DNA of 64,000 nt, taken from positions 25,146-89,145 of the forward strand of contig JAFYAZ010000034.1 of assembly GCA_017540455.1 (NCBI GenBank), given 5' to 3'. The notes beneath the pieces were generated by a model, which worked only from the letters and a program-made list of their open reading frames with translations, ran no database searches and was not told the DNA's origin. Of this stretch, positions 4,339-64,000 are shown one piece after another. This DNA comes from Bacilli bacterium. GTDB lineage: Bacteria > Bacillota_I > Bacilli_A > RFN20 > CAG-826. How positions within the stretch are numbered: the stretch's first letter is position 1; each line of letters starts with the position of its first letter. A program made the translations under genes and the position numbers.

Positions 4339-4701
4339 AAAATCTGAATTTGCTTTATTGCAAATCTCCTTTCATCTTCAGGGTTTTGTGTTCCACGCGT
4401 CCGCCCTGAGAAGGCGCACGGAAGAGATAACGAATGGCGAAGGCGCCAAAAAGGCGCGATCTCTATTTTGTTAAGCCACTTCGATTATACGTTCAATTAA
4501 AGAAAATGATTTGCTTTTTATTGGTTATATTGGGACATAGAACTGTCATAAGTAAGCCACTACCTTGTGTTTGCGAGTTTTGTAAAATTTGTTTCTTTTG
4601 TAGTGTTTTCAATAACTTTCCAGTTTTGTTCTTTTATAAAGGTGAATAAAGATTGAATGTCGTTTTTAAGATTTATTAAGATTATGTTGTTCGAAGAATT
4701 T

Positions 4702-46304: not shown

Positions 46305-47969
46305 TTAGAATAAGCCAGAGATGTTGCCATCTTCATCGACGTCGATGCTATTGGCGGCTGGAACTTTTGGAAGTCCTGGCATGGTCATGATTTCGCCAGT
46401 TAAGGCAACGATGAAGCCTGCGCCTGCGCTGACTTTGATGTTTCTGACCGTGACCTCGAAGTTCTCTGGGGCGCCAAGTTTGTTCTGGTCATCAGAGAAT
46501 GAGTATTGGGTCTTGGCAACGCAGATTGGGAGTTTTCCGAATCCGAGCTCTTCAAGCTTAGCGGCCTGCTTTTTGGCGGTTGGAGTAAGGACTACGCCAC
46601 TGCCATGGTAGATCTTCTTGACGATCTGATCGAGTTTCTCTTCGATCGAAGCGTCGAGTTCATAGCTGAAGCTGAAGTTATTTGGTTCTTCGCAAAGGCG
46701 GACGACTTCTTTAGCAAGTTCGATGCCACCATTGCCACCATCGGCCCAAACGGTCGAGAGCTTGACGTTGACGCCGAGCTCTTTGCATTTCCTCTCGACA
46801 AGTTCGATTTCGGCATCGGTGTCGGTTGGGAAGCGGTTGATTGCGACGACGCATGGAAGATGATAGACGGAGACGATGTTGTCGATGTGTCTAAGAAGGT
46901 TTGGAAGGCCTTTTTCAAGGGCGACGAGATCTTCCTTGCCAAGTTCGGTCTTCTTTAAGCCACCGTGCATCTTAAGGGCTCTAACGGTTGCGACCATGAC
47001 GACACAGTCAGGTTTGAGACCGGCTAAACGGCATTTGATGTCGAGGAACTTCTCAGCGCCTAAGTCAGCACCGAATCCGGCTTCTGTGACGGTGTAGTCA
47101 GCAAGCGACATAGCCATGTTCGTGGCGGTGACGGAGTTGCAGCCATGGGCGATATTGGCGAATGGGCCACCATGGACGAAGCATGGGGTGCCTTCGAGGG
47201 TCTGAACGAGGTTTGGCTTGATGGCGTCTTTGAGAAGAGCGGTCATCGCGCCGACGGCGTGGAGGTCTTTGGCGGTGACTGGTTTGTCGTCATAGGTGTA
47301 GGCGACGACCATTCTGCCGATTCTTTCCTTTAAGTCGTTGATGGAGGTGGCAAGGCAGAAGATAGCCATCATCTCAGTTGCGACGGTGATGTCGAATCCA
47401 TCTTCTCTTGGGGTGCCATTGGCTTTTCCGCCAAGGCCATCGACGACGAATCTAAGCTGGCGATCATTCATATCAAGGCATCTCTTGATGACGATTTTGC
47501 GGTTATCGATTCCTAAAGGATTGCCTTGCTGAATTGAGTTATCGAGAAGAGCGCAAAGAAGGTTGTTGGCTGTGGTGATGGCGTGGAAGTCACCGGTGAA
47601 GTGAAGGTTGATGTCTTCCATTGGGACGACTTGGGCGTATCCACCGCCGGCAGCGCCGCCTTTGATACCAAAGACTGGACCAAGAGATGGTTCTCTCAAA
47701 GCTGCGATTGTGTTCTTGCCGATCTTTCTAAGACCATCGGCAAGGCCAATGCTTGTTGTGGTTTTGCCTTCGCCCGCAGGGGTTGGGGTGATCGCGGTGA
47801 CGAGGATCAACTTGCCTTTCTTGCGGCCTTCCTTTAAGAGGGCGTAGTCAACCTTGGCTTTGTATTTGCCATAAGGCTCGAGGTATTTATCGTCGACTCC
47901 GGCGACTTTTGCGATTTCGAAGATTGTCTTCTTCTCGCACTGTTGAGCGATTTCGATGTCTGTAAGCAT
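46305..47969 (-). CDS. fhs: formate--tetrahydrofolate ligase
   Basis: 554 aa, full-length FTHFS ([14 protein letters not shown]...[11 protein letters not shown]). Strong SD. Only 22 nt separate it from the purL stop with no intervening hairpin, so it is probably co-transcribed. Confidence 0.9.
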
Positions 47970-47991
47970 CTTTTTTTCCTCCTAATTTTTT

Positions 47992-50900
47992 TTATTTGAA
48001 GAACTCAACAGCGGACTTAAACATTTCCATGTCGTATTCGCCGTAGACGTTCTTATATAATCCATTTCCGATACGTTCGCTATGACCCATCTTGCCAAGG
48101 ACTCGGCCATCGAACGAGGTAATGCCTTCGACGGCTAAGACTGAGTTATTTGGGTTGTAACGTATATCGTCGGTTGCTTCACCATTGAGATTAACATATT
48201 GCGTAGCAATTTGCCCATTTTTTGCAAGTTCTCTTACGAGATCCTCACTTGCGAAGAAGCGGCCTTCGCCATGGGAGATGGCAACGTTATAGACGTCGCC
48301 GACCTTGGTTCTCGCTAACCATGGTGATTTATTTGATGCGATTCTGGTTCTAACAATCTTGGACTGGTGTCTAGCGATTGTGTTGAAGGTAAGGGTTGGG
48401 AAGGATTCGTCAGTATCCATGATCTTGCCGTATGGAACGAGACCGAGTTTGATGAGGGCTTGGAAGCCATTGCAGATGCCAAGCATGAGGCCTTCTCTAT
48501 TCTCAAGAAGGTCGGTGACCGCGTTCTTGATTGCTTCGTTTCTGAAGAAAGAAGTGATGAATTTAGCGGAACCGTCTGGTTCATCGCCACCGCTGAATCC
48601 GCCTGGAACGAAGATGATCTGACTCTTCTTCACTTCTTCGGCGAAGTCTTTGATGGACTTATTGAGGTGTTCGGTATCGAGGTTGTTGATGACGAAGATC
48701 TTGACTTTTGCCCCTGCGTCCCTCATCGCCTTAGCGGAATCGAACTCGCAGTTGGTTCCTGGGAAGACTGGGATGAGGACTCTCACTTCGTCATAGTGTT
48801 TCGAAGCGTGGGCCTTGGATTCTGCCTTGTAGGAGAAAGACTCATAGATCTTGCTCTCTTTCTTTTCGAGGGTTGGGTAAACGCTTTCGAGCTTGCCTTC
48901 GTATAAGGCGTCGATGTCGCTAACCGCGACTTCTTCGTTTTTATAGACGTATTTGGCGTCGTTAGTGACTTCGCCAACATAGAGGCCATCGAGTTTTTCG
49001 TTAGTTTCGACCATGAATGAACCATAGGCATAGCCATAGATGTCACTAAGGGTCAATTCGTCATTGAACTTGAAGCCATAGCCATTGCCGATAGCGGCTT
49101 TCATGACGGCTTCGGCGACACCGCCAAGGGTTGGGGTGAAGCAGGATTTGATTAAACCTTTTGAATTAAACTCTTCGATTCTCTTGAAGAGAGCTTTGAC
49201 GCTTTCGGCGTTTGGAAGGCCATTCTCATCATAAGATGGCTTTAAGAGATAGACTTTGCTGCCCGCCTCTTTGAATTCGTTGGTGAGGACTTCATTGACG
49301 TTACCCGTGGTGACGGCGAAGGAGACAAGGGTTGGAGGAACGTCGAGTTTCTCGAATGATCCTGACATCGAGTCTTTGCCACCGATTGCGGCAACACCGA
49401 AATCGAGCTGGGCTTTGAAGGCGCCAAGGAGAGCGCTTAAAGGCTCGCCCCAACGTCTGGCGTCTTTCATCGGCTTCTTGAAGTATTCCTGGAAGGTGAG
49501 GTAGACGTCTTCGAATTTGGCGCCCGCAGCAATGAGCTTGGAGATGCTTTCGACGACGGAAAGATAGGCGCCTTGATATGGGTTCTTCTCCATGATGAAT
49601 GGGTTATATCCCCATGACATGAAGGAGCAATCGTCGGTGTGTTTTTCTTCAACCGAGATCTTGGTGACCATTGTCTGGACAGGGGTTCTCTGGTATTTGC
49701 CACCAAATGGCATGGTGACGGCACCTGCGCCGATGGTTGAGTCGAATCTCTCGCTGAGACCGCGCTTCGAGCAGATGTTGAGATCGCCAGCGAGGGCTTT
49801 GAGATTTGAAGCGAAATCCCCTTCCACCTCTTTCTTGTAGTCAAGAGGCTTGGAGGCAAGGATGTCGATATGCTTCTCAGCGCCGTTGGAATTGAGGAAT
49901 TCACGGCTGACATCGACGATGACCTTGTCGTTCCATTTCATGACAAGGCGAGGGTTCTTGGTAACGGTAGCAACCACGGTTGCTTCGAGGTTTTCTTTGT
50001 TAGCGATAGCAAGGAAGGCGTCGACGTTTTCTTTTTCGACGACCACTGCCATTCTTTCTTGCGATTCGCTGATAGCGAGTTCGGTGCCATCAAGGCCTTC
50101 GTATTTCTTTGGGACGGCATTGAGGTTGATCGATAAGCCATCCGCGAGCTCGCCGATTGCGACCGAAACGCCGCCGGCACCGAAGTCGTTGCAGCGTTTG
50201 ATCATTTGGCAGGCTTCTTTGTTTCTAAAGAGCCTTTGGAGTTTTCTTTCTTCTGGGGCGTTTCCTTTTTGGACTTCCGCGCCGCAGGTTTCGACTGAGT
50301 GGGCGTTATGGGCTTTGGAGGAGCCGGTTGCGCCACCGACGCCATCTCTGCCGGTTCTACCACCAAGAAGGATGACGACATCGCCATCGACTGGGCATTC
50401 GCGTCTGACGTTCTCGGCTGGGGTTGCGGCGATGACTGCGCCGATTTCCATACGTTTTGCGACGTATCCTGGATGATAGATCTCATCAACGATGCCAGTA
50501 GCTAAGCCGATCTGGTTGCCATATGAGGAATAGCCGGCCGCAGCGGTTTGGACGAGCTTACGCTGTGGGAGTTTGCCAGGGATGGTCTCACTGAGCGGGA
50601 CGGTTGGGTCGCCAGCGCCGGTGACACGCATCGCGGCATAGACGTAGCTTCTGCCTGAAAGAGGGTCACGGATTGCGCCGCCGATACAGGTAGCCGCGCC
50701 GCCGAAAGGTTCGATTTCGGTTGGGTGGTTATGGGTCTCGTTCTTGAAGAGGAGGAGCCATTTCTCGGTTTCACCATCGACCTTGACGTCGATCTTGACG
50801 GTGCAGGCATTGATTTCCTCCGATTCATCGAGCTTTTGGAGCATGCCTCTCTTCTTGAGGACTTTGGCAGCGAGGGTGCCAATATCCATGAGGTTGACTG

Positions 50901-51678
50901 GTTTGGTTCTGTTGAGCTCTTTGCGGCACTCAATGTATTCTTCGTAGGCCGCTTGGATCTCTTTGTCTTCGAAAGAGACGTTGTCGATCGTGGTTAAGAA
51001 GGTCGTGTGACGGCAGTGATCGGACCAATAGGTGTCGATCATCTTGATCTCGGTGATGGTTGGGTCTCTTTGCTCGCTTCTGAAGTAGGCTTGGCAGAAA
51101 GCGATGTCATCGAGGTCCATGGCTAAGCCGTTTTCCTTGACGAAGGCATCAAGCTCATCTCTCGATTTGCCAATGAATCCAGTCAAGGTTTTGACTGTCG
51201 TTGGGATGACGTATTGGGTTTTGAGGGTACTAGGAAGCTCTAAGCTCGCTTCTCTGGCCTCGACAGGGTTAATGACGTATTTCTTGACGGCGGCCACTTC
51301 TTCTTTTGAGAGCTCGCCTTCTAAGATATACACCTTAGCGGTTTTGATGATTGGCTTATCGATGACCGCCATGATCTGGATGCACTGGGCGGCGGAATCG
51401 GCTCTTTGGTCGAATTGGCCTGGGAGGTATTCGACGGCGAAGACTAAGCCTTTTGAAGCTGGGAGCTCAGTGTAGACATCATCAAGCTGAGGTTCGGAAA
51501 GGACGGTGCGGATGGCTTTCTCTAAGACTTTGGCGTCGATGTTCTCAAGGTCGTAGCGGTTAAGGATCCTAAGCGATTTGAGCCCTTTGATGCCAAGAAG
51601 GTTCTTGAATTCGCTATACAAAGCGTTCGCTTCATTCTGAAGACCTGGCTTTTTCTCTACGTAAACTCTATTGACCAT
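47992..51678 (-). CDS. purL: phosphoribosylformylglycinamidine synthase, single-chain large form
   Basis: 1228 aa with an N-terminal PurS-like region, an AIRS/FGAM synthetase core, and a C-terminal glutamine amidotransferase. Confidence 0.9.
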   Translation of the reverse strand: MVNRVYVEKKPGLQNEANALYSEFKNLLGIKGLKSLRILNRYDLENIDAKVLEKAIRTVLSEPQLDDVYTELPASKGLVFAVEYLPGQFDQRADSAAQCIQIMAVIDKPIIKTAKVYILEGELSKEEVAAVKKYVINPVEAREASLELPSTLKTQYVIPTTVKTLTGFIGKSRDELDAFVKENGLAMDLDDIAFCQAYFRSEQRDPTITEIKMIDTYWSDHCRHTTFLTTIDNVSFEDKEIQAAYEEYIECRKELNRTKPVNLMDIGTLAAKVLKKRGMLQKLDESEEINACTVKIDVKVDGETEKWLLLFKNETHNHPTEIEPFGGAATCIGGAIRDPLSGRSYVYAAMRVTGAGDPTVPLSETIPGKLPQRKLVQTAAAGYSSYGNQIGLATGIVDEIYHPGYVAKRMEIGAVIAATPAENVRRECPVDGDVVILLGGRTGRDGVGGATGSSKAHNAHSVETCGAEVQKGNAPEERKLQRLFRNKEACQMIKRCNDFGAGGVSVAIGELADGLSINLNAVPKKYEGLDGTELAISESQERMAVVVEKENVDAFLAIANKENLEATVVATVTKNPRLVMKWNDKVIVDVSREFLNSNGAEKHIDILASKPLDYKKEVEGDFASNLKALAGDLNICSKRGLSERFDSTIGAGAVTMPFGGKYQRTPVQTMVTKISVEEKHTDDCSFMSWGYNPFIMEKNPYQGAYLSVVESISKLIAAGAKFEDVYLTFQEYFKKPMKDARRWGEPLSALLGAFKAQLDFGVAAIGGKDSMSGSFEKLDVPPTLVSFAVTTGNVNEVLTNEFKEAGSKVYLLKPSYDENGLPNAESVKALFKRIEEFNSKGLIKSCFTPTLGGVAEAVMKAAIGNGYGFKFNDELTLSDIYGYAYGSFMVETNEKLDGLYVGEVTNDAKYVYKNEEVAVSDIDALYEGKLESVYPTLEKKESKIYESFSYKAESKAHASKHYDEVRVLIPVFPGTNCEFDSAKAMRDAGAKVKIFVINNLDTEHLNKSIKDFAEEVKKSQIIFVPGGFSGGDEPDGSAKFITSFFRNEAIKNAVTDLLENREGLMLGICNGFQALIKLGLVPYGKIMDTDESFPTLTFNTIARHQSKIVRTRIASNKSPWLARTKVGDVYNVAISHGEGRFFASEDLVRELAKNGQIATQYVNLNGEATDDIRYNPNNSVLAVEGITSFDGRVLGKMGHSERIGNGLYKNVYGEYDMEMFKSAVEFFK

Positions 51679-52949
51679 TAGTCTCTCTCCTTTGCTTTGA
51701 GTGCTCTAGCGCCGATATCGTGACGGTAGAAGCTGTTATCGAAATGGATTTTGTTAACTTTTTCGTATGAGGCTTTGATGGCGCACTTAAGGCATCCGCC
51801 AACTGAGGTGACGCCTAAGACGCGGCCACCATTCGTGAGAAGCTTATCGCCATCGAGTTTGGCGCCTGCGAAATAGATATCGTTTTTGACATCTTCATCA
51901 CAGGTGATCTCATAGCCCTTCTCATAATGGGTTGGGTATCCTTTTGAGGCCATGATGACGCAGCAGGCCGATTTGTCGCTCCATTTGACTTCAGTCTTAT
52001 CAAGCGTTCCGTTAGTGGTCGCCATCATGATGGTGAGAAGGTCGCTTTCTAGAAGCGGGAGGACGACTTGGGCCTCTGGGTCACCGAAACGGCAATTGTA
52101 TTCGATTACCTTCGGTCCGTCTTTCGTGATCATAAGGCCGAAATAGAGGCAGCCTTTGAAGGTTCTTCCTTCTTTGTTCATGGCTTCGATCGTTGGAAGG
52201 AAGATCTTTTCCATGCACTCTTTAGCGACTTCTTCGGTGTAATAAGGGTTTGGGGCGATTGTGCCCATGCCGCCGGTATTTAGGCCCTCATCGTTATCAA
52301 GGGCGCGCTTGTGGTCCATGCTGGAAACCATTGGCTTAAGGGTCTTGCCATCGGTGAAGGAAAGGACGGAAACCTCTGGTCCTTCTAAGAATTCCTCGAT
52401 GACGATATGATCGCCCGAGGCACCGAACTGGTGATTGCTCATGGCGGAGATGACGGCTTGCTTAGCTTCTTCCCTAGTCATAGCAATGACAACGCCCTTG
52501 CCAAGAGCGAGGCCATCGGCTTTGACGACGGTTGGGATTGGGCACTTTTCGACATACGCAAGAGCCTTATTGACGTCATCGAAGACCTCATAGGCGGCGG
52601 TTGGGATGCCGTATTTCTTCATTAGGTTCTTGGAGAAGACTTTGCTGCCTTCGATGATGGCGGCGTTCTTCTTTGGGCCAAAGCAAGGGATGCCTTCTTT
52701 TTCGAGAGCATCGACCATGCCTAAGACAAGCGGATCATCTGGGGTGACGACGACATAGTCGACCTTGTTTGCCTTCGCGAAAGAGACGACTCCTTCGATG
52801 TCGGTTGCCGAGCCGCTCACTAAAACCGCGTCATCCTTCATGCCTCCATTGCCTGGATAGGCATAAATGGTTTCGACGTTTTTGTTTTCTTTGATTTTCT
52901 TGATGATGGCGTGTTCTCTGCCACCGCTTCCAACGACTAAGACTTTCAT
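51678..52949 (-). CDS. purD: phosphoribosylamine--glycine ligase
   Basis: 423 aa. MKVLVVGSGGREHAI, ATP-grasp. Confidence 0.9.
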   Translation of the reverse strand: MKVLVVGSGGREHAIIKKIKENKNVETIYAYPGNGGMKDDAVLVSGSATDIEGVVSFAKANKVDYVVVTPDDPLVLGMVDALEKEGIPCFGPKKNAAIIEGSKVFSKNLMKKYGIPTAAYEVFDDVNKALAYVEKCPIPTVVKADGLALGKGVVIAMTREEAKQAVISAMSNHQFGASGDHIVIEEFLEGPEVSVLSFTDGKTLKPMVSSMDHKRALDNDEGLNTGGMGTIAPNPYYTEEVAKECMEKIFLPTIEAMNKEGRTFKGCLYFGLMITKDGPKVIEYNCRFGDPEAQVVLPLLESDLLTIMMATTNGTLDKTEVKWSDKSACCVIMASKGYPTHYEKGYEITCDEDVKNDIYFAGAKLDGDKLLTNGGRVLGVTSVGGCLKCAIKASYEKVNKIHFDNSFYRHDIGARALKAKERD

Positions 52950-52964
52950 CGGTTATCCCTAAGA

Positions 52965-54149
52965 CTAGTGATGGAATAAACGCATTCCGGTGAAGGCCAT
53001 GACCATATCGTATTTGTCAGCGCATTCAATGACGAGGTCGTCTCTCACGGAACCGCCAGGTTCAGCGATATAGGAGACGCCAGAGCGCTTGGCTCTTTCG
53101 ATATTGTCGAAGAACGGGAAGAAAGCGTCGCTGCCTAAAGAGACGCCGGTGATGGTCGAAAGATAGGCTTTCTGCTCTTCGCGGGTGAATCTTTCTGGCT
53201 GTTTGGTGAAGTATTTCTGCCAGATTCCGTCAGCGCAGACATCCTCTTCGTTTTGGTTGATGTAGCCATCGATGACGTTATCTCTGTCTGGACGCTTGAT
53301 GGTTGGGAGGAATGGGAGGTTAAGGACCTTGTCATGCTGACGGAGGAAGAAGGTGTCGGCCTTGCTGCCGGCTAAGCGGGTGCAGTGAATTCTCGATTGC
53401 TGACCGGCGCCGACGCCGATAGCCTGGCCTTTGTAGGCGTAGCAGACGGAATTCGATTGGGTGTATTTGAGGGTGATTAAAGCGATGATGAGATCTTGGA
53501 CCGCGCTTTCTGGGAGATTTTTGTTCTTGGTGACGATATTGGAAAGAAGTTCGCGGTTGATCTTGAAGTTGTTTCTGCCTTGCTCGAAGGTGATGCCATA
53601 GACCTGCTTGGTCTCCTTTTCTTGTGGGACGTAGCTTGGGTCAATCTTAACGACGTTATAGGTGCCGTTTCTCTTGGCTTTGAGGACTTCGAGGGCTTCT
53701 GGAGAGTAGCTAGGAGCAATGATGCCGTCGCTGACTTCGCGTTTGACCATCAAAGCGGTTGTGAGGTCAACTTCATCGCTGAAGGCGACCCAATCGCCGA
53801 ATGAGCACATTCTGTCGGTGCCCCTGGCTCTGGCGTAAGCGCAGGCGACAGGAGATTCGTCTAAGCCTTTGACGTCATCGACGAAGCAGGCCTTCTTGAG
53901 TTTCTCATCAAGAGGGAGGCCGATGGCGGCGCTGGTTGGAGAGACATGCTTGAAGGAAGCGCAGGCAACGTATCCAAGGGCTTCTTTGAGCTCTTTGACG
54001 AGCTGGTAAGAGTTGAAGGCGTCAAGGAAGTTGATGTAGCCTGGGCGGCCATTGAGGATCTCGATTGGGAGATCTTCTCCGTTAGCCATGTAGATCTTCG
54101 ATGGCTTCTGATTTGGGTTGCAACCGTATTTGAGTTCGAATTCTTTCAT
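52965..54149 (-). CDS. purH: AICAR transformylase-only PurH (lacks the N-terminal MGS-like IMP cyclohydrolase domain)
   Basis: 394 aa. Begins at the AICARFT domain (ELKYGCNPNQ ~ LRYGENPHQ). Conserved GVGAGQQSRI and SDAFFPF...EPGGSVRDD...FTGMRLFHH blocks. Confidence 0.8.
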   Translation of the reverse strand: MKEFELKYGCNPNQKPSKIYMANGEDLPIEILNGRPGYINFLDAFNSYQLVKELKEALGYVACASFKHVSPTSAAIGLPLDEKLKKACFVDDVKGLDESPVACAYARARGTDRMCSFGDWVAFSDEVDLTTALMVKREVSDGIIAPSYSPEALEVLKAKRNGTYNVVKIDPSYVPQEKETKQVYGITFEQGRNNFKINRELLSNIVTKNKNLPESAVQDLIIALITLKYTQSNSVCYAYKGQAIGVGAGQQSRIHCTRLAGSKADTFFLRQHDKVLNLPFLPTIKRPDRDNVIDGYINQNEEDVCADGIWQKYFTKQPERFTREEQKAYLSTITGVSLGSDAFFPFFDNIERAKRSGVSYIAEPGGSVRDDLVIECADKYDMVMAFTGMRLFHH

Positions 54150-54163
54150 TGTTTTTCTCCTTT

Positions 54164-55597
54164 TTAGACTTTCAAAGTAGCGGTGATTGTCTCACCTTGG
54201 TATTTCTTAAGAAGTGGGTCGACAAAGTCGGCGATAAATTCGACGACTTGGGAAGCGGCTCTACCAGTGTATTTGGCAGGATCGAGCTCTTTTTCGATGT
54301 CTTCCTTTTTGAGGTTGAACATCGGGTCGGCGACGAGTCTGTCGATGAGGTCGTTTGGTTTGCCATTCATCTTGACTTCGTAGGCGGCCGCTTGCGAGTG
54401 GACGCGGATCGCTTCATGGAGCTCTTGACGGTTGCCACCGCGTTTGACGGCTTCCATCATGATGTTCTCGGTGGCCATGAATGGAAGTTTTTCCATGACA
54501 CGGCGACGGATGACGTTCTCATAGACGACGAGGTTCGATGAGATGTTGATGTAGATGTTGAGGATGGCATCCACCGCTAAGAAAGCCTCAGCGACGGAGA
54601 CACGCTTATTGGCGCTGTCATCAAGGGTTCTTTCAAACCATTGGGTGCCAGCGGTAAGACCTGGGTTGATCGAGTCAACGATGACGTATCTCGCAAGGGA
54701 AGAGATTCTTTCGCTTCTCATTGGGTTGCGTTTGTATGGCATCGCGGAACTGCCGATCTGGGTCTTCTCAAATGGCTCTTCAATCTCTTCGAAGGATTGG
54801 AGGATACGGAGGTCATTCGAGAATTTGTAGGCGGATTGCGCAAAACCCGAAAGGACGCTTAAGAAATAGCTATCGACCTTGCGGGAATAGGTCTGTCCTG
54901 AAACAGGGACGCAGGCTTCAAAGCCCATATCGGTTGCGATGAGTTTCTCAAGTTCTTTGACTTTGGCTTCATCACCGCCGAAAAGATCCATGAATGAAGC
55001 TTGGGTTCCTGTGGTGCCTTTTTGGCCAAGGAGTTTGAGGTTGTCCATTTGATAGACGAGGTTTTCGACGTCCATCACGAGCTCATTCATCCACAAAGTG
55101 GCCCTCTTGCCGACCGTGGTAAGCTGGGCTGGCTGGAGATGGGTGTAAGCAAGGCAAGGAAGGTCTTTGTACTTGAGGGCAAAGGCTTTGAGGTTGCTTA
55201 AGACCTGAGCGGCTTTCTTAAGGACGATCTTGCTTGCTTCCCTAAGGATGATGACGTCGGTGTTATCGCCAACATAGCAGGATGTGGCGCCTAAATGGAT
55301 GATGCCCGCCGCTTTTGGGCATTGCTGTCCGTAAGCGTAGACGTGAGACATGACGTCATGCCTGACGATTCTTTCTCTTTCTTCAGCGACATCGTAGTTG
55401 ATGTCACTCACGTGGGCTTCGAGCTCAGCGATCTGCTCATCGGTGATATCTAAGCCTAACTTCTTTTCGCTTTTGGCCAAAGAAACCCAGAGTTTTCTCC
55501 AAGTCTGGAACTTGAAATCGTTAGAGAAAACGTACTGCATCTCTTCGCTTGCGTAGCGGGTCGAGAATGGTGAAATGTATCCTTTTCTTTCTTCCAT
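54164..55597 (-). CDS. purB: adenylosuccinate lyase
   Basis: 477 aa. Lyase_1 fold with a C-terminal ADSL domain. Confidence 0.85.
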   Translation of the reverse strand: MEERKGYISPFSTRYASEEMQYVFSNDFKFQTWRKLWVSLAKSEKKLGLDITDEQIAELEAHVSDINYDVAEERERIVRHDVMSHVYAYGQQCPKAAGIIHLGATSCYVGDNTDVIILREASKIVLKKAAQVLSNLKAFALKYKDLPCLAYTHLQPAQLTTVGKRATLWMNELVMDVENLVYQMDNLKLLGQKGTTGTQASFMDLFGGDEAKVKELEKLIATDMGFEACVPVSGQTYSRKVDSYFLSVLSGFAQSAYKFSNDLRILQSFEEIEEPFEKTQIGSSAMPYKRNPMRSERISSLARYVIVDSINPGLTAGTQWFERTLDDSANKRVSVAEAFLAVDAILNIYINISSNLVVYENVIRRRVMEKLPFMATENIMMEAVKRGGNRQELHEAIRVHSQAAAYEVKMNGKPNDLIDRLVADPMFNLKKEDIEKELDPAKYTGRAASQVVEFIADFVDPLLKKYQGETITATLKV

Positions 55598-55607
55598 CTT
55601 TGCCTCC

Positions 55608-56327
55608 TTATTTGTTTTTATTGATAAGTCTTGTGGTGACTTCTTTGGTAGCTAAGTCAACGTATCTGACGTAGAGGGAGATCTTGTTGTTCTCGTTTAA
55701 GCCAGTCCAGATATCGTTAGCGAATTCGTCGATATCGTTAGGGACGGCCACTCTTTCAGGCTCGCCTTGGAAGGTTGGGATTGGGTTTCCATCGGTGACG
55801 TAGGTATGGATGAAATGTCCAAGTCCTGGGAGGGCGTCATATTCGAAATAGTAACGGTTGCAGGAGGTTCCTTTCTCGTCAGCGGATTTGAGGATCGACA
55901 TCTCATAGGAGAAATCGTTTCCCTCGAATTTGAGAACGCCGGAGATGCGTGGGGTGAGGTTAGGGAAGTCTGGCTCAAAGGCGCGGCTCTTGAGGGAGCA
56001 CTTCATGCATTTGCCGGCTTTAAGGCCTTCGTAGATGGTATCGGTCTGATCGCCGTTGGTGACAATCATCTTGTTGTCGATGTCTCTCACCGCCGCATAG
56101 ATGATAAGCGATGGGTCCTGGACTTTTGAGGCGTCGAATGGTTCGGTGTAGAGGACGTTGTCCTTGAAGGTGAAGACTCTGTTTCTTGAGTTCTCGCTTC
56201 TGCCCATGATGAAGTAAGCGAAAGCCGCTTTCTTGCCATCACTAGTTTTGCCAATGATGATGCCACGTCCGACATATGGGTTGTCCTTGATGAGTTCCTT
56301 TATGTTGCTAACAGCGTAGATGTTCAT
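55608..56327 (-). CDS. purO: PurO-type (archaeal-like) IMP cyclohydrolase
   Basis: 239 aa. YVGRGIIIGKTSDGKKAAFAYFIMGRSENSRNR, TNGDQTDTIYEG and TPRISGVL match the PurO (IMP_cyclohyd, PF07826) core as recalled from Methanocaldococcus PurO. Confidence 0.65.
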   Translation of the reverse strand: MNIYAVSNIKELIKDNPYVGRGIIIGKTSDGKKAAFAYFIMGRSENSRNRVFTFKDNVLYTEPFDASKVQDPSLIIYAAVRDIDNKMIVTNGDQTDTIYEGLKAGKCMKCSLKSRAFEPDFPNLTPRISGVLKFEGNDFSYEMSILKSADEKGTSCNRYYFEYDALPGLGHFIHTYVTDGNPIPTFQGEPERVAVPNDIDEFANDIWTGLNENNKISLYVRYVDLATKEVTTRLINKNK

Positions 56328-56942
56328 TTACTTTTCCTCCAATAACTGTTTTGAGACCATTTCAACCGCTTGAGGGAGAATCTTCCATTCGGCTTCTTCC
56401 ATGACGCGGCGCTGTAAGATTTCTGGGGTGTCCCCTTCTTTTACTTCGACCGCCTTCTGAAGGATGATCTTTCCTCCATCGGTGATCTCGTTGACGAAGT
56501 GGACTGTGGCGCCTGTGACCTTTACTCCTTTTGCAAGGGCGGCCTCATGAACATGAAGTCCATAGAAGCCATCGCCGCAGAAGGATGGGATGAGGGATGG
56601 GTGAACGTTGATGATTCGGTTAGGATATTCCTTTACGAATCTCTCTGAGAGAATGGCTAAGAATCCGGCAAGAACGATGAGGTCGATGTCTCTTTCCTTT
56701 AGAGCCTTCAAGAGAGCGTCTTCGAAGGCTTCTTGGGAACCGAGTTCTTTCTTTAGGAGGACTAGCGATTCGATGTTATGGTTCTTCGCTCTTTCTAAGG
56801 CATAGACGTCTTTTTTGTTTGAGACGACGAGGGTGACCTTTCCAGAAAGGATGATTCCTTTGTCGATTGCGTCAAGAATCGCCTGGAGGTTGGTGCCTCC
56901 CCCTGAAACGAAGACTGCGATGTTAGCTAATTCTTTTTTCAT
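56328..56942 (-). CDS. purN: phosphoribosylglycinamide formyltransferase
   Basis: The track ORF extends to 57020. The start is placed at MKKELANIAVFVSGGGTNLQAIL (56942), 4 nt after the purM stop. NHGSL-type formyltransferase. Confidence 0.85.
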   Translation of the reverse strand: MKKELANIAVFVSGGGTNLQAILDAIDKGIILSGKVTLVVSNKKDVYALERAKNHNIESLVLLKKELGSQEAFEDALLKALKERDIDLIVLAGFLAILSERFVKEYPNRIINVHPSLIPSFCGDGFYGLHVHEAALAKGVKVTGATVHFVNEITDGGKIILQKAVEVKEGDTPEILQRRVMEEAEWKILPQAVEMVSKQLLEEK

Positions 56943-56946
56943 TGTC

Positions 56947-57996
56947 TTAGAGATTGATTTCGATCTTTTCGTCGCTAGTTGATTTTTCGATATGGCCGAT
57001 GACGTAAGCGTCTTCGCCATGGGCTTTTAAGATGGCAAGGGATTTCTCGACGTCCTCTGGTTTGACGATGATGGACATGCCGACACCCATGTTGTAGGTG
57101 TTGAACATATCTCTTTCTGGGATGTTTCCCTTTGACTGGATGAGTTTGAAGATCGGGAGGACCTTGACGTCTTCTTTCTTGATGACGACTTTAAGTCCGT
57201 CTGGGATGGAGCGAGGCATATTCTCATAGAAGCCTCCTCCCGTGATATGGGAGATGCCTTTGACCTCGACTTCATCAAGAAGGGCGAGGACTGGTTTGAC
57301 ATAGATTTTGGTTGGGGTGAGAAGGGTCTCGCCAAGAGACTTTCCACCAAGTTCTGGGAGAGGTTTCTTGATGTCAGCGTTCTCAATATCGAAGACTTTT
57401 CTGACAAGGGAGAAGCCGTTGGAGTGAACGCCGCTAGATGGGAGAGCGATCATGACATCCCCTGCCGCCATCTTCTTGTTATCGATGACTTTGTCTTTGT
57501 CGACGATGCCGACTGAGAAACCGGCGAGGTCATATTCATCAACTGGGTAGAACCCTGGCATTTCTGCCGTTTCGCCACCGACGAGCTCGCTATGAGCCAT
57601 GACACAGCCATCGCAGATGCCAGAAACGATATCGGCGATCTTCTCTGGGTAGTTCTTGCCACAGGCGATGTAGTCAAGGAAGAAGAGAGGCTTGGCGCCG
57701 CAGCAGATGACGTCATTGACGCACATGGCGACGCAGTCGATGCCGACGGTGTCATGCTTGTCCATCAAGAAAGCGATCTTGAGTTTGGTGCCAACGCCAT
57801 CGGTTCCTGAAACGAGGATTGGATGTTTGTAGCCTTCGAGGTCAAGGGTGAAAAGTCCGCCGAATCCGCCAATATCGTCTGGTTTGGCCTGGACGATGGT
57901 TCTGGCGATATGAGCCTTCATGAGCTCAACGGCCTTGTATCCTGCCGTGATGTCTACGCCTGCAGCTGCGTATGATTCTGATTTTGAGTTTTTCAT
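56947..57996 (-). CDS. purM: phosphoribosylformylglycinamidine cyclo-ligase (AIR synthetase)
   Basis: 349 aa. AIRS N- and C-terminal domains. Confidence 0.9.
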
Positions 57997-58011
57997 GTTT
58001 CTCTCCCCTAC

Positions 58012-59430
58012 TTATTCTTTATCTGAGATCTTGTTTTCAAATCTTGATTTTCTTGTGTCGCTAGGAATCGCCGTTGGGTAACTTCCATCGAAGCAAGCCG
58101 TGCAGCATTCCCCTCCCGCGATGTCCTTGACGTTTTCGACCGAGAGGAAGCCTAGCGAATCCGCGCCGATGATCTTCGCGATTTCCTCCACCGAATGGTG
58201 GCAGGCGATGAGGTAATCCCTCGAATCGATGTCCGTGCCATAGTAGCAAGGATTGAGGAAGGTCGGCGACGATATCCTCATGTGGATTTCTTTGGCGCCC
58301 GCATCGCGAAGAAGCTTGATTGTCTTCTTGCTTGTCGTGCCTCTGACGATTGAGTCATCGATGACCACCACTCGCTTGCCTTTGACGACCGAGGAGACAG
58401 GATTGAGCTTGAGTTTGACTTTGTCTTCTCTGTTATCTTGGCCGGGAGCGATGAACGTGCGGCCGATGTATTTGTTTTTGATATATCCGATTTCGTAAGG
58501 AATGCCCGATTCCTTTGAATAACCGATCGCGGCATCAAGACCGGAATCCGGGACACCGATGACGATATCGGCTTCGACTGGATGGGATTTTGCGAGGTAT
58601 TCGCCCGCTTTGACCCTGGCGGAATGGACGGAGATGCCATCGATCACTGAGTCAGGTCTGGCGAAATAGACGAATTCGAAGGCGCAGATGTGCTTCTTTT
58701 GCTTGCCGCAGTGCGTCTTGATTGAGTGAACGCCGTCCTTGTCGAAATAGACGACTTCGCCTGGGAGGACGTCACGGACGAACTTGGCGCCGACGGAATC
58801 GAGGGCGCAGGTTTCGCTAGCGGCGATATAGGTGCCATCGTCTCTCACGCCATAGCAAAGAGGCCTGAAACCGAATGGGTCACGGGCGATGACGAGTTTT
58901 GTCGGTGACATCAAAACAAGAGAATAGGAACCCTTGATGGTGTACATCGCGCGTTCCACCGCCTCTTCGATTGAGTTCGAGGTGATTCTTTCTCTGGTGA
59001 CTATGTAGGAAATGACCTCAGTGTCTGAGGTTGTATGGAAGATTGAGCCTTGGAGTTCAAGCTGGGAGCGGAGTTCCAAGGAGTTGGTGATATTGCCATT
59101 GTGGGCGATGGCGATATGGCCATGGATATGATTGACGACAAGAGGCTGGGCGTTATGCCTATCTGTGCAGCCTGTGGTGCCATATCTGACATGACCGACG
59201 GCGATGTTTCCTTGTCCAAGGCGGGCAAGGTGGCGTTCGGTGAAGACCTCTTCGACAAGGCCTAAGTCTTTGTATGTCGAGAAAACGCCATCGTCACAGA
59301 CGACGATGCCGCAGGACTCTTGTCCACGGTGCTGGAGGGCGAATAAACCGTAGTATGCGGTTCTGGCGACGTCTTGCTTTGCTGGCGAATAGACGCCGAA
59401 GATTCCGCATTCTTCATGTAACGATGACAT
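58012..59430 (-). CDS. purF: amidophosphoribosyltransferase (canonical, with propeptide and Cys1)
   Basis: 472 aa. MSSLHEE propeptide followed by CGIFGVYS...[10 protein letters not shown], PRTase DDSIVRGTT, and C-terminal Fe-S cysteines [10 protein letters not shown]. Confidence 0.9.
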
Positions 59431-59462
59431 TCTCTTACCCTCCTTCCCTTATGTTTGTTTGC

Positions 59463-59957
59463 TTATTTGTTAAAGGTTTCTGCGATTTCCTTATCTTTTT
59501 CGAGGGCGGCTTTTGCTCCTTCTTCTCTAAGGGCAACGAGCTTGGCGTCAAGCTCTTTGTCGCTTAAGGCGAGGATTTCCGCGGCTAAGAGGGCAGCGTT
59601 CTTCGCTCCGTCGATCGCGACGGTCGCGACTGGAATCCCGGAAGGCATCATGACGGTTGAGAGAAGGGCGTCCATGCCATCAAGCGCGGCGGATTTGCAA
59701 GGGATACCAATGACTGGAAGGGTGGTTCTTGCAGCGATTGCGCCCGCTAAGTGAGCGGCCATGCCCGCTGCTGCGATGAGGACCCCGAAGCCGTTTGCCT
59801 TTGCGCTAGCGGCAAAGGTCCCCGCTTCTTCTGGAGTTCTATGAGCCGAATAGACGTGAGCCTCATAAGGAACGCCAAGGGCATCGAGTTGCTCGAATGC
59901 TTTCTTGAGGATTGGAAGATCGCTCGCGCTTCCCATGATGATTCCGACTTTCTTCAT
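59463..59957 (-). CDS. purE: N5-carboxyaminoimidazole ribonucleotide mutase
   Basis: 164 aa. GSASDLP...AHLAG motifs. First gene of the operon with SD GGAGGAAAACCAAT-ATG. Confidence 0.9.
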
Positions 59958-60017: not shown

Positions 60018-60115
60018 TCTACGAGTGTGCCCAGACGGTCGACGTAATTACTGAATTTTTATTATTGCTCCACTGCGTTAATTCGCATCTACCGTCAGTC
60101 ACAATAATACTTTCG
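60018..60115 (-). promoter_or_regulatory. candidate ZTP (pfl-motif) riboswitch in the purE leader, with overlapping terminator-like expression platform down to about 59975
   Basis: Minus-strand transcript is GUAUUAUUGUGACUGACGGUAGAUGCGAAUUAACGCAGUGGAGCAAUAAUA...(19-nt linker)...CGACCGUCUGGGCACACUCGUAG. It has a P1 helix AUUAUUG/CAAUAAU and a UGACUG-ACGG segment that resembles the conserved UGACUGGCG. A P2 hairpin UGCG-aauuaa-CGCA is followed by GUGGAGC. The 3' CCGUC-UGGGCA can pseudoknot with GACGG and shows covariation relative to GGCG/CGCC. A downstream imperfect hairpin CACACUCGUAGAA...UUCUAGCAGCGUG is followed by UCUUUUUAUUUUUU. Confidence 0.45.
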
Positions 60116-61602: not shown

Positions 61603-61872
61603 TTAGATCTTGTGCATGAGGTTGAAGATGTCTTCATGCATGCATTCGATCTTGAGGTTCTTCTCCTCACCCACTTTGTGGATCTCATCAACGAAGGAGG
61701 TGAAATCGATCGTCAGGTTATCGATGCTGACAACCATGTACATTGTAAAGAGCTCACCGATGATGGTTTGGTTGACGTCTTGGATGTTGACTTTGTATTC
61801 TGCGCATTTGGTTGCGACAGCGGCTAAAATACCGACTGTATCTTTGCCAACGACTGAAATGATAGCTTTCAT
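61603..61872 (-). CDS. ACT-domain protein (UPF0237 family)
   Basis: 89 aa. MKAIISVVGKDTVGILAAVATKCAEYKVNIQDVNQTI. The canonical partner gene sits immediately upstream of UPF0210. Confidence 0.75.
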   Translation of the reverse strand: MKAIISVVGKDTVGILAAVATKCAEYKVNIQDVNQTIIGELFTMYMVVSIDNLTIDFTSFVDEIHKVGEEKNLKIECMHEDIFNLMHKI

Positions 61873-62050
61873 GATAGGCTCCTTCTTCCACTCTTTTGGG
61901 GCTTTTGTCGTATAAATGATAGTCTAGAAAACCCCCTCTCGAAAACACGAAAAAAATATTTTTTAGATGAAAGCGCTTTTATCTTTATCGCCTCTTTTTT
62001 CCCTCACATAATGAGAAAGTGCAAAGAGCACGACATAAAGGGTAATTACT

Positions 62051-63454
62051 ATGGGCGGATTTTTCGGAGTTGTCAGCAAAAGCGATTGCGTATTTGATCT
62101 TTTCTACGGTGTCGACTACCACTCACATTTAGGCACGAGAAGAGGCGGTTTGGCCGTTTGGAAGGATGGCAAAATCAGCAAGGCGATCCACAAGATCGAG
62201 AACTCCCCTTTCAGAACCAAATTCGAGAAAGAAGCCATGGAGATGAAAGGCAACATGGGCATCGGATGCATTTCCGACTTCGATTCCCAGCCTCTCGTCG
62301 TGAGATCGAACCACGGCACTTACGCCATCACCTGCGTTGGCAAAATCAACAACGCCAAAGAACTCGAAGAGAAATTCCTTAGCAATAACGCCCACTTCCT
62401 TGAAACCTCAACCGGCGACATCAATAACACCGAGCTTGTCGCTAGCATCATCAACCAAAAGAAAAACCTCATCGAAGGTTTGCAATATGTCCAAGAAGTC
62501 ATTGAAGGCTCAATGACCGTCCTCCTTCTTAACGAAAAGGGCATCTACTGCTCTAGAGATAAATATGGCAGGACCCCTATCGTCATCGGCAAGAAAGACG
62601 GCGCTTATTGCGCTTCATTTGAATCTTTCGCCTTCCTTAATTTAGGATACACGCCTTATAAGAATCTCGGCCCAGGCGAAATCGCCGTCATCAATGCCGA
62701 GACAGGCCTTAGGACCTTAGTCGAACCAGGGAACAAGATGCGAATCTGCACCTTCCTTTGGATCTACTATGGCTACCCGTCAACCGTCTACGAAGGACTC
62801 TCAGTCGAGAAACTCAGGTGCAAGTGCGGCGAATTCATCGCGAAACGCGATAACGTCAAACCTGATTCCGTTGCCGGCGTCCCTGATTCCGGCCTTGGAG
62901 CCGCAATCGGCTACTCAAACGCCTCAGGAATCCCGTTCCAAAGACCATTTGTCAAATACACCCCTACTTGGCCTCGTTCCTTCATACCGACGATGCAGAC
63001 CAAACGCAACCTCATCGCCCACATGAAGCTCATCCCGATCCACGATTTGATCGAAGGCAAGAAGCTTCTTCTCATCGATGACTCGATCGTCAGAGGCACC
63101 CAGATGAGAGAGACGACGGAATTCCTATATAAGTCCGGCGCCGCTGAGGTTCATGTCCGTTCCTCATGCCCTCCAATCCTTTATGGCTGCAAATACCTCA
63201 ACTTCTCCGTTTCGACTAGCGATATGGACCTTATTGCAAGACGCGCCATCATGGAACTTGAAGGAAACGTTGAGCCAGAAACGATCAAGAAGTATCTCAA
63301 CCCAGATGGCAAAGAATACGCCAACATGGTCGAGTGCATTCGCAAAAAGCTCAACTTCACATCCCTTGGCTACATGAGACTCGATGATCTCAAAGAAGCC
63401 GTCGAGATGGATCCTGAAAAGATCTGCACCTACTGCTGGGATGGCAGAGAATAA
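62051..63454 (+). CDS. amidophosphoribosyltransferase paralog lacking the N-terminal catalytic cysteine (PurF-like)
   Basis: 467 aa and full-length collinear with PurF. Begins MGGFFGVVSKSD, where canonical PurF has (M)CGI(F/V)G. An in-frame TAA 15 nt upstream excludes a longer N-terminus. It retains the PRTase motif [13 protein letters not shown] and Fe-S ligand-like cysteines (ICTFLW, SSCPP, CTYCWDG). SD AAAGGG lies 9 nt upstream. Confidence 0.75.
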   Translation: MGGFFGVVSKSDCVFDLFYGVDYHSHLGTRRGGLAVWKDGKISKAIHKIENSPFRTKFEKEAMEMKGNMGIGCISDFDSQPLVVRSNHGTYAITCVGKINNAKELEEKFLSNNAHFLETSTGDINNTELVASIINQKKNLIEGLQYVQEVIEGSMTVLLLNEKGIYCSRDKYGRTPIVIGKKDGAYCASFESFAFLNLGYTPYKNLGPGEIAVINAETGLRTLVEPGNKMRICTFLWIYYGYPSTVYEGLSVEKLRCKCGEFIAKRDNVKPDSVAGVPDSGLGAAIGYSNASGIPFQRPFVKYTPTWPRSFIPTMQTKRNLIAHMKLIPIHDLIEGKKLLLIDDSIVRGTQMRETTEFLYKSGAAEVHVRSSCPPILYGCKYLNFSVSTSDMDLIARRAIMELEGNVEPETIKKYLNPDGKEYANMVECIRKKLNFTSLGYMRLDDLKEAVEMDPEKICTYCWDGRE

Positions 63455-63461
63455 ATAATAA

Positions 63462-63492
63462 AAAAAGGCCCGTATTCATACGGGTCTTTTAA
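63462..63492. terminator. bidirectional terminator between the PurF-like gene and convergent purC
   Basis: AAAAAAAGGCCCGTATTCATACGGGTCTTTTAATTT. Confidence 0.7.
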
Positions 63493-63503: not shown

Positions 63504-64000
63504 TTATTTGAGAGGCTTGCCGGTTAAGAGTTCGTAACCCTGGAGATATTTAGCGATGGTTTTCTCAACGACCTCTTCTGGAAGGGTCCAGTCATGATCA
63601 TGGGACTTAAGCCAATCTCTGGCGAATTGCTTATCGAAGGATGGCTGGCTCTTTCCTCTTTCGTATCCTTCAAGAGGCCAGAATCTCGATGAATCTGGGG
63701 TGAGCATTTCATCAGCGACGACAACTTCACCATTCTCATCGAGGCCGAATTCGAATTTGGTGTCGGCGATGATGATGCCTTTTGTGAGGGCGTAGTCAGC
63801 GCATTTCTTATATAGGGCGATGGTGTATTCCTTTAATTTGGTCGCGTATTCAAGGCCTTTGCCTGGGAATTCCTTTTCAAGAACCTCAACCGATCTTTCG
63901 AAGGAGATGTTCTCGTCGTGATCGCCGATCTCCGCTTTGGTGGATGGGGTGTAGATCGGTTCAGGAAGCTTATCGGATTCCACTAAACCTTTTGGAAGGG
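63504..64000 (-). CDS. purC: SAICAR synthetase, C-terminal part (N-terminus beyond window end)
   Basis: The reading frame stays open to position 64000. ...[24 protein letters not shown]...TPDSSRFW matches the PurC core. The track start at 63983 is only a GTG artefact. Confidence 0.85.

Follow-up and report, generated by a model that had tools for sequence, protein, structure and literature searches.

Amidophosphoribosyltransferase (PurF) carries out the committed, feedback-regulated step of purine synthesis, supplies phosphoribosylamine (PRA) to the branch that leads to thiamine, and is both taught and annotated as a glutamine-dependent enzyme. Here we describe a gene for a PurF homologue that lacks the catalytic N-terminal cysteine (Cys1), located in a 64 000 nt stretch of DNA from a Bacilli bacterium (assembly GCA_017540455.1, contig JAFYAZ010000034.1, positions 25 146 to 89 145), referred to below as the window. 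The closest structural comparison is with the [4Fe-4S] PurF of Bacillus subtilis (1ao0, 1gph), with which the protein shares a two-domain fold, the phosphoribosyl pyrophosphate (PRPP) and flexible loops, four cysteines at ligand positions and an association with pur operons, and from which it differs in having neither propeptide nor Cys1, in the replacement of the glutamine-site residues, in a 26-aa C-terminal insertion and in the motif YYGYPST. The closest comparison in activity is with Cys1 mutants of Escherichia coli PurF, which, according to a passage of PMC3261824 (citing Mei & Zalkin, 1989), lose the use of glutamine and keep the use of NH3; an extract of PMC12017579 (citing Mantsala & Zalkin, 1984) likewise has the NH3-dependent side activity of canonical PurF surviving Cys1 replacement. 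The NH3-dependent PRA synthesis left in such mutants, as those extracts describe it, is the activity that we propose here, although they were made in the laboratory by point mutation and the rest of their glutamine site is intact, whereas in the present case the whole site is remodelled and has been fixed by selection in an ancient natural clade. A Ser-variant is also mentioned in PMC3261824, namely the uncharacterised archaeal paralogue Mlab_0150 of Methanocorpusculum labreanum, but it is described there as a recent duplicate of that organism's own purF, whereas the bacterial cysteine-less proteins form a deep, separate clade.

More distant parallels come from enzymes that retain an amidotransferase domain after losing its nucleophile. 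The beta-lactam and carbapenam synthetases, which are AsnB homologues, keep a class II N-terminal nucleophile (Ntn) domain as a structural element, and two of their structures (1jgt and 1m1z) are distant Foldseek matches to the model of the protein described here; the synthetase reaction has changed in those enzymes, whereas the operon context in the present case argues that the purine pathway has not. In ureotelic vertebrates carbamoyl phosphate synthetase (CPS) I, whose glutaminase-like domain is missing the catalytic Cys, works with free ammonia alongside a paralogue that depends on glutamine, but the analogy is one of logic only, since CPS I has an unrelated fold (class I glutamine amidotransferase plus ATP-grasp), is eukaryotic and requires N-acetylglutamate.

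The cysteine-less PurF very likely works in purine or PRA synthesis, a reading that rests on the conserved phosphoribosyltransferase (PRTase) apparatus, the loss of the glutaminase site and the occupation by relatives of the purF slot in riboswitch-controlled operons. That it is specifically a glutamine-independent, NH3-dependent PRA synthase for de novo purine synthesis is a narrower proposal, which we regard as probable. The gene (62051..63454, plus strand) is an open reading frame (ORF) for a two-domain PurF homologue of 467 aa with the N-terminus MGGFFGVVSKSDCVFDLFYGVDYHSHLGTRRGG. An alternative start upstream of MGGFFGVV is excluded, since the in-frame reading 5' of the ATG is T-stop-RVIT-M, with the stop five codons before the ATG and no ATG, GTG or TTG among the four sense codons (RVIT) that intervene. 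The protein can be aligned end to end with the canonical PurF of the window at 30% identity (BLASTP, E 4e-65), and its nearest solved structures are those of B. subtilis PurF, to which it is collinear over residues 3-416 (E ~6e-50). An AlphaFold (AF2) model built from a 46-sequence family alignment has a mean local confidence (pLDDT) of 83.4 and a predicted template-modelling (TM) score (pTM) of 0.82, and superimposes on 1ao0 with a TM score of 0.78-0.80 (Foldseek); homology and predicted fold over both domains thus place it in the PurF superfamily, with an Ntn-fold domain followed by a type I PRTase. Low confidence is confined to residues 113-122 and 301-327, the latter being consistent with a mobile flexible loop, though not proof of one. 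The protein scores 191.6 bits against TIGR01134, the NCBIfam purF equivalog (EC 2.4.2.14), which is below the cutoff of 350 bits, whereas the canonical protein is above it at 523.9; Pfam reports PF13537 (GATase_7) at 8.8e-10, and neither NCBIfam nor Pfam holds a model dedicated to cysteine-less PurF. The residue roles given below come from alignment with canonical PurF and from background on the structures of the E. coli and B. subtilis enzymes rather than from atomic coordinates.

The first line of evidence is the glutamine site. Relative to the canonical PurF of the window, Cys1 is replaced by Gly2, the Arg of HRGQ by Leu27, the Arg-Tyr of GHVRY by Ser75-Asp76, the first Asn of HNGN by Val96 and the Asp of TSDTE by Asn126; the Gly of HNGN is kept as G97. 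We take the replaced residues to be R26, R73, Y74, N101 and D127 in the E. coli numbering, so that among the equivalents of R26, N101, G102 and D127, which an earlier note on this DNA had singled out for checking, only the glycine survives. The same pattern extends across the family. In 37 full-length representatives, drawn from a library clustered at 50% identity and used for all conservation percentages given here, Cys1 is replaced by G, S, T or A, the HRGQ Arg by Leu and the VRY Arg-Tyr by Ser-Asp, while the first Asn of HNGN and the Asp of SDTE are variable. Among 354 full-length close members, 217 have G and 130 have S at position 2, none has Cys there, and HRGQ is absent from every one. 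With Cys1 and the glutamine-site residues lost, the alignment indicates that the protein cannot hydrolyse glutamine by the Ntn mechanism, as the earlier note had also concluded.

That note had further called the glutaminase region degenerate, which holds for the residues lost but not for the domain as a whole. The N-domain has conserved residues of its own, within the stretches DYHSHLGT (22-29) and ISD.D (74-78) and at N125: D22 is conserved in 86% of representatives, Y23 in 97%, H24 in 73%, H47 in 84%, F54 in 97%, S75 in 89%, D76 in 65%, D78 in 76% and N125 in 86%, and purifying selection on the domain is similar to that on the PRTase domain. To judge from this pattern the N-domain is remodelled rather than abandoned. 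We considered and rejected the idea that Ser or Thr at position 2 is a substitute Ntn nucleophile, as position 2 switches among G, S, T and A inside the clade and Ser-type members, too, lack the remainder of the glutamine site; the case for DYHSH as a new metal or catalytic motif was also weakened, only Y23 and H26 being near-invariant family-wide.

By the same kind of comparison the PRTase half looks fully competent. The PRPP loop reads DDSIVRGTQ at residues 343-351, in accordance with the type I pattern (hydrophobic-D-D/E-S-x-x-x-G-T), and the DSxVRG motif is present in 352 of the 354 close members. K302, R309, R319, K326, D344, S345 and R348 are conserved in at least 97% of representatives (D344, S345 and R348 in 97-100%), and the flexible loop as a whole (K302, R309-S310-F-I, Q316, R319 and K326) aligns with its canonical counterpart and is conserved in 94% of representatives or more. 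Cysteines are found at all four ligand positions of the B. subtilis-type Fe-S subclass (C233 in 100%, C380 in 97%, C459 in 94% and C462 in 97%), from which binding of a cluster is predicted, and the catalytic and loop residues together with these cysteines are invariant in the 46-sequence alignment. Two features are peculiar to the family: the PRPP loop is followed by Q351 where canonical PurF has Thr, and the insertion of about 26 aa is predicted to be helical (pLDDT 94-98). In addition, the canonical YFARPDS reads YYGYPST at residues 239-245 (window 62765-62785), with loss of the Arg and the Asp; the canonical segment is presumably part of the nucleotide feedback-inhibitor site, and the change may imply altered feedback regulation.

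These replacements are long-standing and under selection. Codon 2 is GGC, GGA or GGT across 11 related genomes, so that Gly has been held through synonymous change, and the pairwise ratio of non-synonymous to synonymous substitution (dN/dS) against close relatives is 0.04-0.10 overall; by region it is 0.04-0.12 in the N-domain and 0.04-0.09 over the PRTase domain and C-terminus, similar to the 0.02-0.08 of canonical purF in these genomes. Comparison of this Bacilli genome with Lachnospiraceae shows 66-70% identity for the cysteine-less proteins and 55-58% for the canonical PurFs of the same loci. The gene is thus neither a sequencing error nor a decaying duplicate.

Nor is it the isolated paralogue that the earlier note had pictured, but an ordinary member of a very large and old family which appears to be undescribed. 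A homologue search returned at least 8000 clusters at the 90% identity level, and scans found carriers among no fewer than 565 species genomes as well as on 548 or more metagenome contigs, the database name being 'amidophosphoribosyltransferase' for every source. They include 'Bacilli' and 'Erysipelotrichaceae' metagenome-assembled genomes (MAGs) from rumen, horse and sheep (the gene of one, L001, is 99% identical to that of the window), as well as Acholeplasmatales, Lachnospiraceae, Eubacterium, Oscillospiraceae (Dysosmobacter and Lawsonibacter), Bacteroidales and Muribaculaceae, while a Ser-type subfamily occurs in Planctomycetota (Sedimentisphaerales), Omnitrophota and Latescibacterota; the habitats are rumen, horse and human gut, anoxic sediments and those of groundwater phyla. 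In a neighbour-joining tree, which is a rough distance tree, midpoint-rooted and without support values, the cysteine-less proteins form a deep clade apart from canonical PurFs, with a few intermediate lineages between the two groups, some of which have Cys and HRGQ. Two of these (P0209 and P0250) keep Cys1 and HRGQ but no longer have the Arg of VRY or the Asn of HNGN, two others (P0252 and P0195) keep HRG without Cys1, and P0244 and P0265 also fall among the intermediates in alignment and tree; their residue patterns point to a glutaminase site that was lost in steps or more than once. The literature searched contains no description of a cysteine-less bacterial PurF and no characterised family of this kind with an established non-purine role, Mlab_0150 being the nearest mention.

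The strongest functional indication comes from the gene neighbourhoods of these relatives (in the gene orders below, x denotes the cysteine-less gene). In four Oscillospiraceae loci (L172-L175) the order is ZTP riboswitch-purE-purC-x-purM-purN-purO-AICARFT-purD-purL-guaB (AICARFT, the gene for 5-aminoimidazole-4-carboxamide ribonucleotide formyltransferase), with the ATG of x overlapping the purC stop; no canonical purF is present within these 21-kb operon loci. The lineage is very abundant in the human gut, its 90%-identity cluster having 3295 members. A Lawsonibacter locus (L177) reads purE-purC-purC-x-purM-purN and also has no canonical purF in the stretch of operon fetched, and a Dysosmobacter locus (L176) reads purE-x-purC-purF-purM, its canonical PurF having a propeptide, CGVFGIY, HRGQ and HNGN. 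Two further loci show purN-x-purO-AICARFT (L133) and x-purM (L139). Among Lachnospiraceae we found purC-purF-purB-x-purA (L093), and in other loci of this group purF-purB-x, purB-x-purA, x-purC and x-purF; in L022, L039, L045 and L112 the gene directly adjoins canonical purF. The family is thus associated with de novo purine operons both from within (L172-L177, L133 and L139) and by position beside purB, purA, purC or purF, in Lachnospiraceae as in the window. Overall, pur genes lie near the cysteine-less gene in 27 of 80 genome loci and in about 9 of 80 metagenome loci, with flanks of up to 8 kb on each side. Clustering of these neighbourhoods gave no neighbour other than pur genes that recurs across lineages, and neither a separate glutaminase subunit nor a transporter. 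A ZTP riboswitch also heads or interrupts pur operons in L172, L177 and L002, and a search with Rfam at the window and about 27 related loci placed ZTP riboswitches only at the operon level, with none directly upstream of a stand-alone cysteine-less gene.

The earlier note had offered three possible roles, namely an ammonia-dependent PRA synthase, a regulatory or sensor paralogue, and a component of another amidotransfer pathway. The first is now clearly favoured, because orthologues sit in the purF slot of pur operons. Without a glutaminase, moreover, the simplest nitrogen donor is free ammonia. We suggest that the PRTase domain would bind PRPP through its conserved DDSIVRGT loop, that the flexible loop (K302, R309-S-F-I, Q316, R319 and K326) would close on it, and that free NH3 would be added at C1. 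External ammonia would probably enter through what was once the glutamine pocket, now remodelled, and along the interdomain channel, the N-domain having been kept as lid, channel and oligomerization scaffold and possibly as a site for NH4+ or another ligand (D22, Y23, H24, H47, S75, D76, D78 and N125). Entry of external NH3 by the glutamine site and channel has been proposed for canonical PurF in a section of PMC12017579 (citing Chen et al.), and the same route here would explain the continued selection on the N-domain and on the channel-forming loop residues; PPAT is reported to use ambient NH3. In this rumen or hindgut Bacilli genome the isozyme, placed beside a canonical glutamine-dependent PurF, with a presumed promoter of its own and outside the ZTP-controlled operon, may divide the labour with PurF by offering a route that spares glutamine when ammonia is plentiful. 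The rumen and gut are ammonia-rich environments, and the distribution of the family suits such an enzyme, an anaerobic range being appropriate to an O2-labile Fe-S protein and gut and rumen sources to a high requirement for ammonia.

Several observations weigh against this reading. The polar residues peculiar to the N-domain are conserved under strong constraint, exceeding what a passive scaffold would need, which could mean that there is another ligand or nitrogen donor. Many genomes, this one included, also keep a canonical PurF, and the isozyme is therefore not simply a replacement for it. Most family members stand alone without informative neighbours, and the stand-alone genes of Planctomycetota, Omnitrophota and Acholeplasmatales gave no functional hint from theirs. 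The match of the protein to PF00156 (Pribosyltran) is only 18.7 bits, under the gathering threshold of 26.3, and no assay of any cysteine-less family member was found in the literature searched.

It would be rather surprising, but is conceivable, that the clade is a new amidotransferase class in which the rebuilt pocket and a free Gly, Ser, Thr or Ala N-terminus capture NH4+ or take nitrogen from a donor other than glutamine, feeding it to PRPP. The more specific alternative, that the remodelled N-domain obtains NH3 through non-Ntn chemistry, releasing or capturing it from a compound other than glutamine, and channels it to PRPP, ranks first among the rival explanations, and we consider it unlikely. 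It has in its favour a constraint on the N-domain about equal to that on the PRTase domain, a new conserved polar set in place of the glutamine-binding set rather than random decay, and the retention of the channel-forming flexible-loop residues of canonical PurF (F-I). The residues concerned would be Asp22, Tyr23, His24, His26, His47, Ser75, Asp76, Asp78 and Asn125, together with the free N-terminal amine left by Met removal. G, S, T and A at position 2 all allow excision of the N-terminal Met, and as position 2 is nearly always one of these, the free N-terminus may have kept some importance where the active site used to be. On the other hand, only Y23 and H26 are near-invariant family-wide, H26 being common to canonical PurF, the neighbourhoods show no recurrent gene for a candidate donor, a transporter or an accessory function, and we know of no precedent for an amidotransferase of this type.

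The coexistence of the two proteins could suggest a regulatory pseudoenzyme, which would either associate in hetero-oligomers with canonical PurF (itself dimeric or tetrameric) and adjust its activity or its feedback inhibition, or serve as a metabolite sensor through the remodelled N-domain pocket. The canonical purF is present in the same window, adjoins the cysteine-less gene in four loci and shares its operon in the Dysosmobacter locus; the N-domain has conserved polar residues peculiar to the family, and YYGYPST for YFARPDS may reflect altered nucleotide regulation, if the segment belongs to the allosteric site. A pure regulator, however, would have no need of a PRPP loop, flexible-loop set and Fe-S ligands conserved at 94-100% across a deep clade. 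In L172-L175 and L177, moreover, the gene is the sole purF-type gene of the operon stretch fetched and stands in the purF slot, and the stand-alone genes of Planctomycetota and Omnitrophota have no adjacent partner. We therefore place this explanation second among the rivals and think it improbable.

More doubtful still, and third in rank, is a PRTase with a different acceptor and a product other than PRA, by analogy with the changed reactions of the beta-lactam and carbapenam synthetases. Most family members are not beside pur genes, the protein is under the TIGR01134 equivalog cutoff, and Q351 and the 26-aa insertion are departures from the canonical PRTase half. The recurrent functional neighbours in several Bacillota families are nevertheless purine genes only (purB, purA, purC, purF, purM, purN and purE), the Oscillospiraceae genes occupy the exact purF slot in operons of which one is under ZTP-riboswitch control, and the PurF-specific flexible loop is kept. 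Last, an artefact, whether an error of sequencing or assembly at codon 2 (which the earlier note had said would undo its claim), a wrong start or a decaying pseudogene, has nothing in its favour and a negligible probability given the upstream in-frame stop with no other start, the persistence of Gly despite synonymous codon changes, the same N-terminus in hundreds of independent assemblies, and dN/dS values of 0.04-0.10.

If the cysteine-less PurF is indeed NH3-dependent, then gut and rumen bacteria of great abundance (Oscillospiraceae, Lachnospiraceae, Bacteroidales and uncultured Bacilli) and many anaerobic environmental phyla begin their purines from free ammonia, purine synthesis in these organisms would be coupled directly to ammonia availability and not to the glutamine pool, and the nitrogen donor would be wrong in thousands of 'EC 2.4.2.14' annotations and in the metabolic models derived from them. 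The two PurF types would then form a natural bacterial counterpart of the CPS I/CPS II split, and the family would provide a system for studying the roles of the PurF N-domain and ammonia channel without glutaminase chemistry. Were the clade instead a new amidotransferase class, the committed purine step of many dominant gut anaerobes would run on non-glutamine nitrogen by undescribed chemistry. The hypothesis can be put to a direct test, since some of the carriers are in culture: those in Hominifimenecus include a named isolate and complete-genome records, and although the Dysosmobacter and Lawsonibacter matches are metagenomic or MAG records, cultured isolates of both genera exist.

Table 1. 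Coordinates of the cysteine-less purF-like gene, its parts and its neighbours in the window
Feature	Position	Strand	Evidence
Cysteine-less PurF-like coding sequence, 467 aa	62051..63454	+	ORF; TIGR01134 191.6 bits; 1ao0 E 5.6e-50; AF2 pLDDT 83.4
Codon 2, GGC = Gly, site of catalytic Cys1	62054..62056	+	Alignment to PurF
Ntn-fold N-domain (~residues 1-230), remodelled glutamine site	62051..62740	+	PF13537 8.8e-10; conservation; dN/dS 0.04-0.12
Type I PRTase domain (~residues 231-400)	62741..63250	+	Alignments to PurF
Cys233, aligned to [4Fe-4S] ligand Cys236 of B. subtilis PurF	62747..62749	+	1ao0 alignment
PRTase flexible loop (residues 301-327)	62951..63031	+	Aligned to canonical loop KNxYxGRTFIxPxQxxR...KL
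PRPP-binding loop (residues 340-351)	63068..63103	+	Sequence, alignment
Cys380, aligned to [4Fe-4S] ligand Cys382 of B. subtilis PurF	63188..63190	+	1ao0 alignment
Family-specific ~26-aa insertion (residues ~401-426)	63251..63328	+	Gap in canonical PurF in alignment
C459-x-x-C462, aligned to last two Fe-S ligands	63425..63436	+	Alignment to CxxC of window canonical PurF
Pur cluster, presumed operon: purE-purF-purM-purN-purO(like)-purB-AICARFT-purD-FGAM (formylglycinamidine ribonucleotide) synthase-fhs	46305..59957	-	NCBIfam
Canonical purF (propeptide MSSLHEE, Cys1 CGIFGV, HRGQ, HNGN, TSDTE)	58012..59430	-	TIGR01134 523.9 bits
ZMP/ZTP riboswitch upstream of purE, heading the ten-gene cluster	60022..60112	-	RF01750, 49.2 bits (gathering score 39)
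Pair of ACT-domain protein (89 aa, UPF0237-like) and UPF0210/DUF711 protein (457 aa)	60229-61872	-	NF003700 'hypothetical protein', 732 bits (UPF0210)
Divergent intergenic region, 178 bp, presumed promoter region (PurF-like gene and ACT/UPF0210 pair)	61873..62050		Sequence
GC-rich hairpin with A-run and T-run flanks, candidate bidirectional terminator between PurF-like gene and purC	63469..63484		Sequence
purC (SAICAR synthase), 3' part, convergent with PurF-like gene	63504..64000	-	100% identical to 291-aa gene in L001

The locus itself is laid out in Table 1. As the earlier note had it, the canonical purF of the window encodes a propeptide and Cys1; its reading of the cysteine-less gene as carrying Gly in place of the catalytic Cys, with no other possible start, and as retaining the PRPP loop and the Fe-S cysteines, is likewise borne out by the alignments. 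The gene is monocistronic, about 2 kb from the ten-gene pur cluster, divergent from the ACT/UPF0210 pair and convergent with purC. For the hairpin between it and purC, a scan gave a terminator-like site on the minus strand only, and the bidirectional reading comes from the A-run and T-run flanks. The ACT/UPF0210 pair, placed here between the pur operon and the cysteine-less gene, also lies within a few kb of it in two unrelated Clostridia (L025 and L028), and the ACT homologue alone is near it in L122.

Some other elements recur in the wider neighbourhoods. A PlsC-like acyltransferase gene (PF01553, HxxxxD) is immediately or nearly downstream of the cysteine-less gene in three unrelated groups (L037, L047, L050, L057, L069 and L070; L083-L086; L090-L091), which comprise Acetatifactor-like Lachnospiraceae, Acholeplasmatales and a metagenomic lineage with a Ser-type gene; the recurrence is probably a coincidence. 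TwoAYGGAY RNAs occur a few kb from the cysteine-less gene in three Lachnospiraceae loci (L053 at 4650-4815, 5305-5468 and 5637-5802; L093 at 9011-9174; L095 at 12110-12276), as does a glmS ribozyme in L053; none adjoins the gene, and they are likely to be unrelated to it. Two tRNA genes of the window (RF00005; 27322-27393 and 35614-35687, both on the minus strand) are also unrelated to it.

Within the pur cluster, the last two steps of purine synthesis are split between the genes at 55608-56327 and 52965-54149 (both on the minus strand), which encode an AICAR formyltransferase that stands by itself (NF005492, 668.9 bits) and a PurO-like inosine monophosphate cyclohydrolase whose match to archaeal PurO models is weak (62 bits, the cutoff being 150), in whichever order; the Oscillospiraceae operons divide the two steps likewise (PF07826 and PF01808). 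The ORF listed as purN (56328-57020, minus strand) overlaps purM by 74 nt, and since its match to TIGR00639 begins only at residue 33, translation probably starts at an internal Met, residue 27 (MKKELANIAVF...), with which the overlap disappears.

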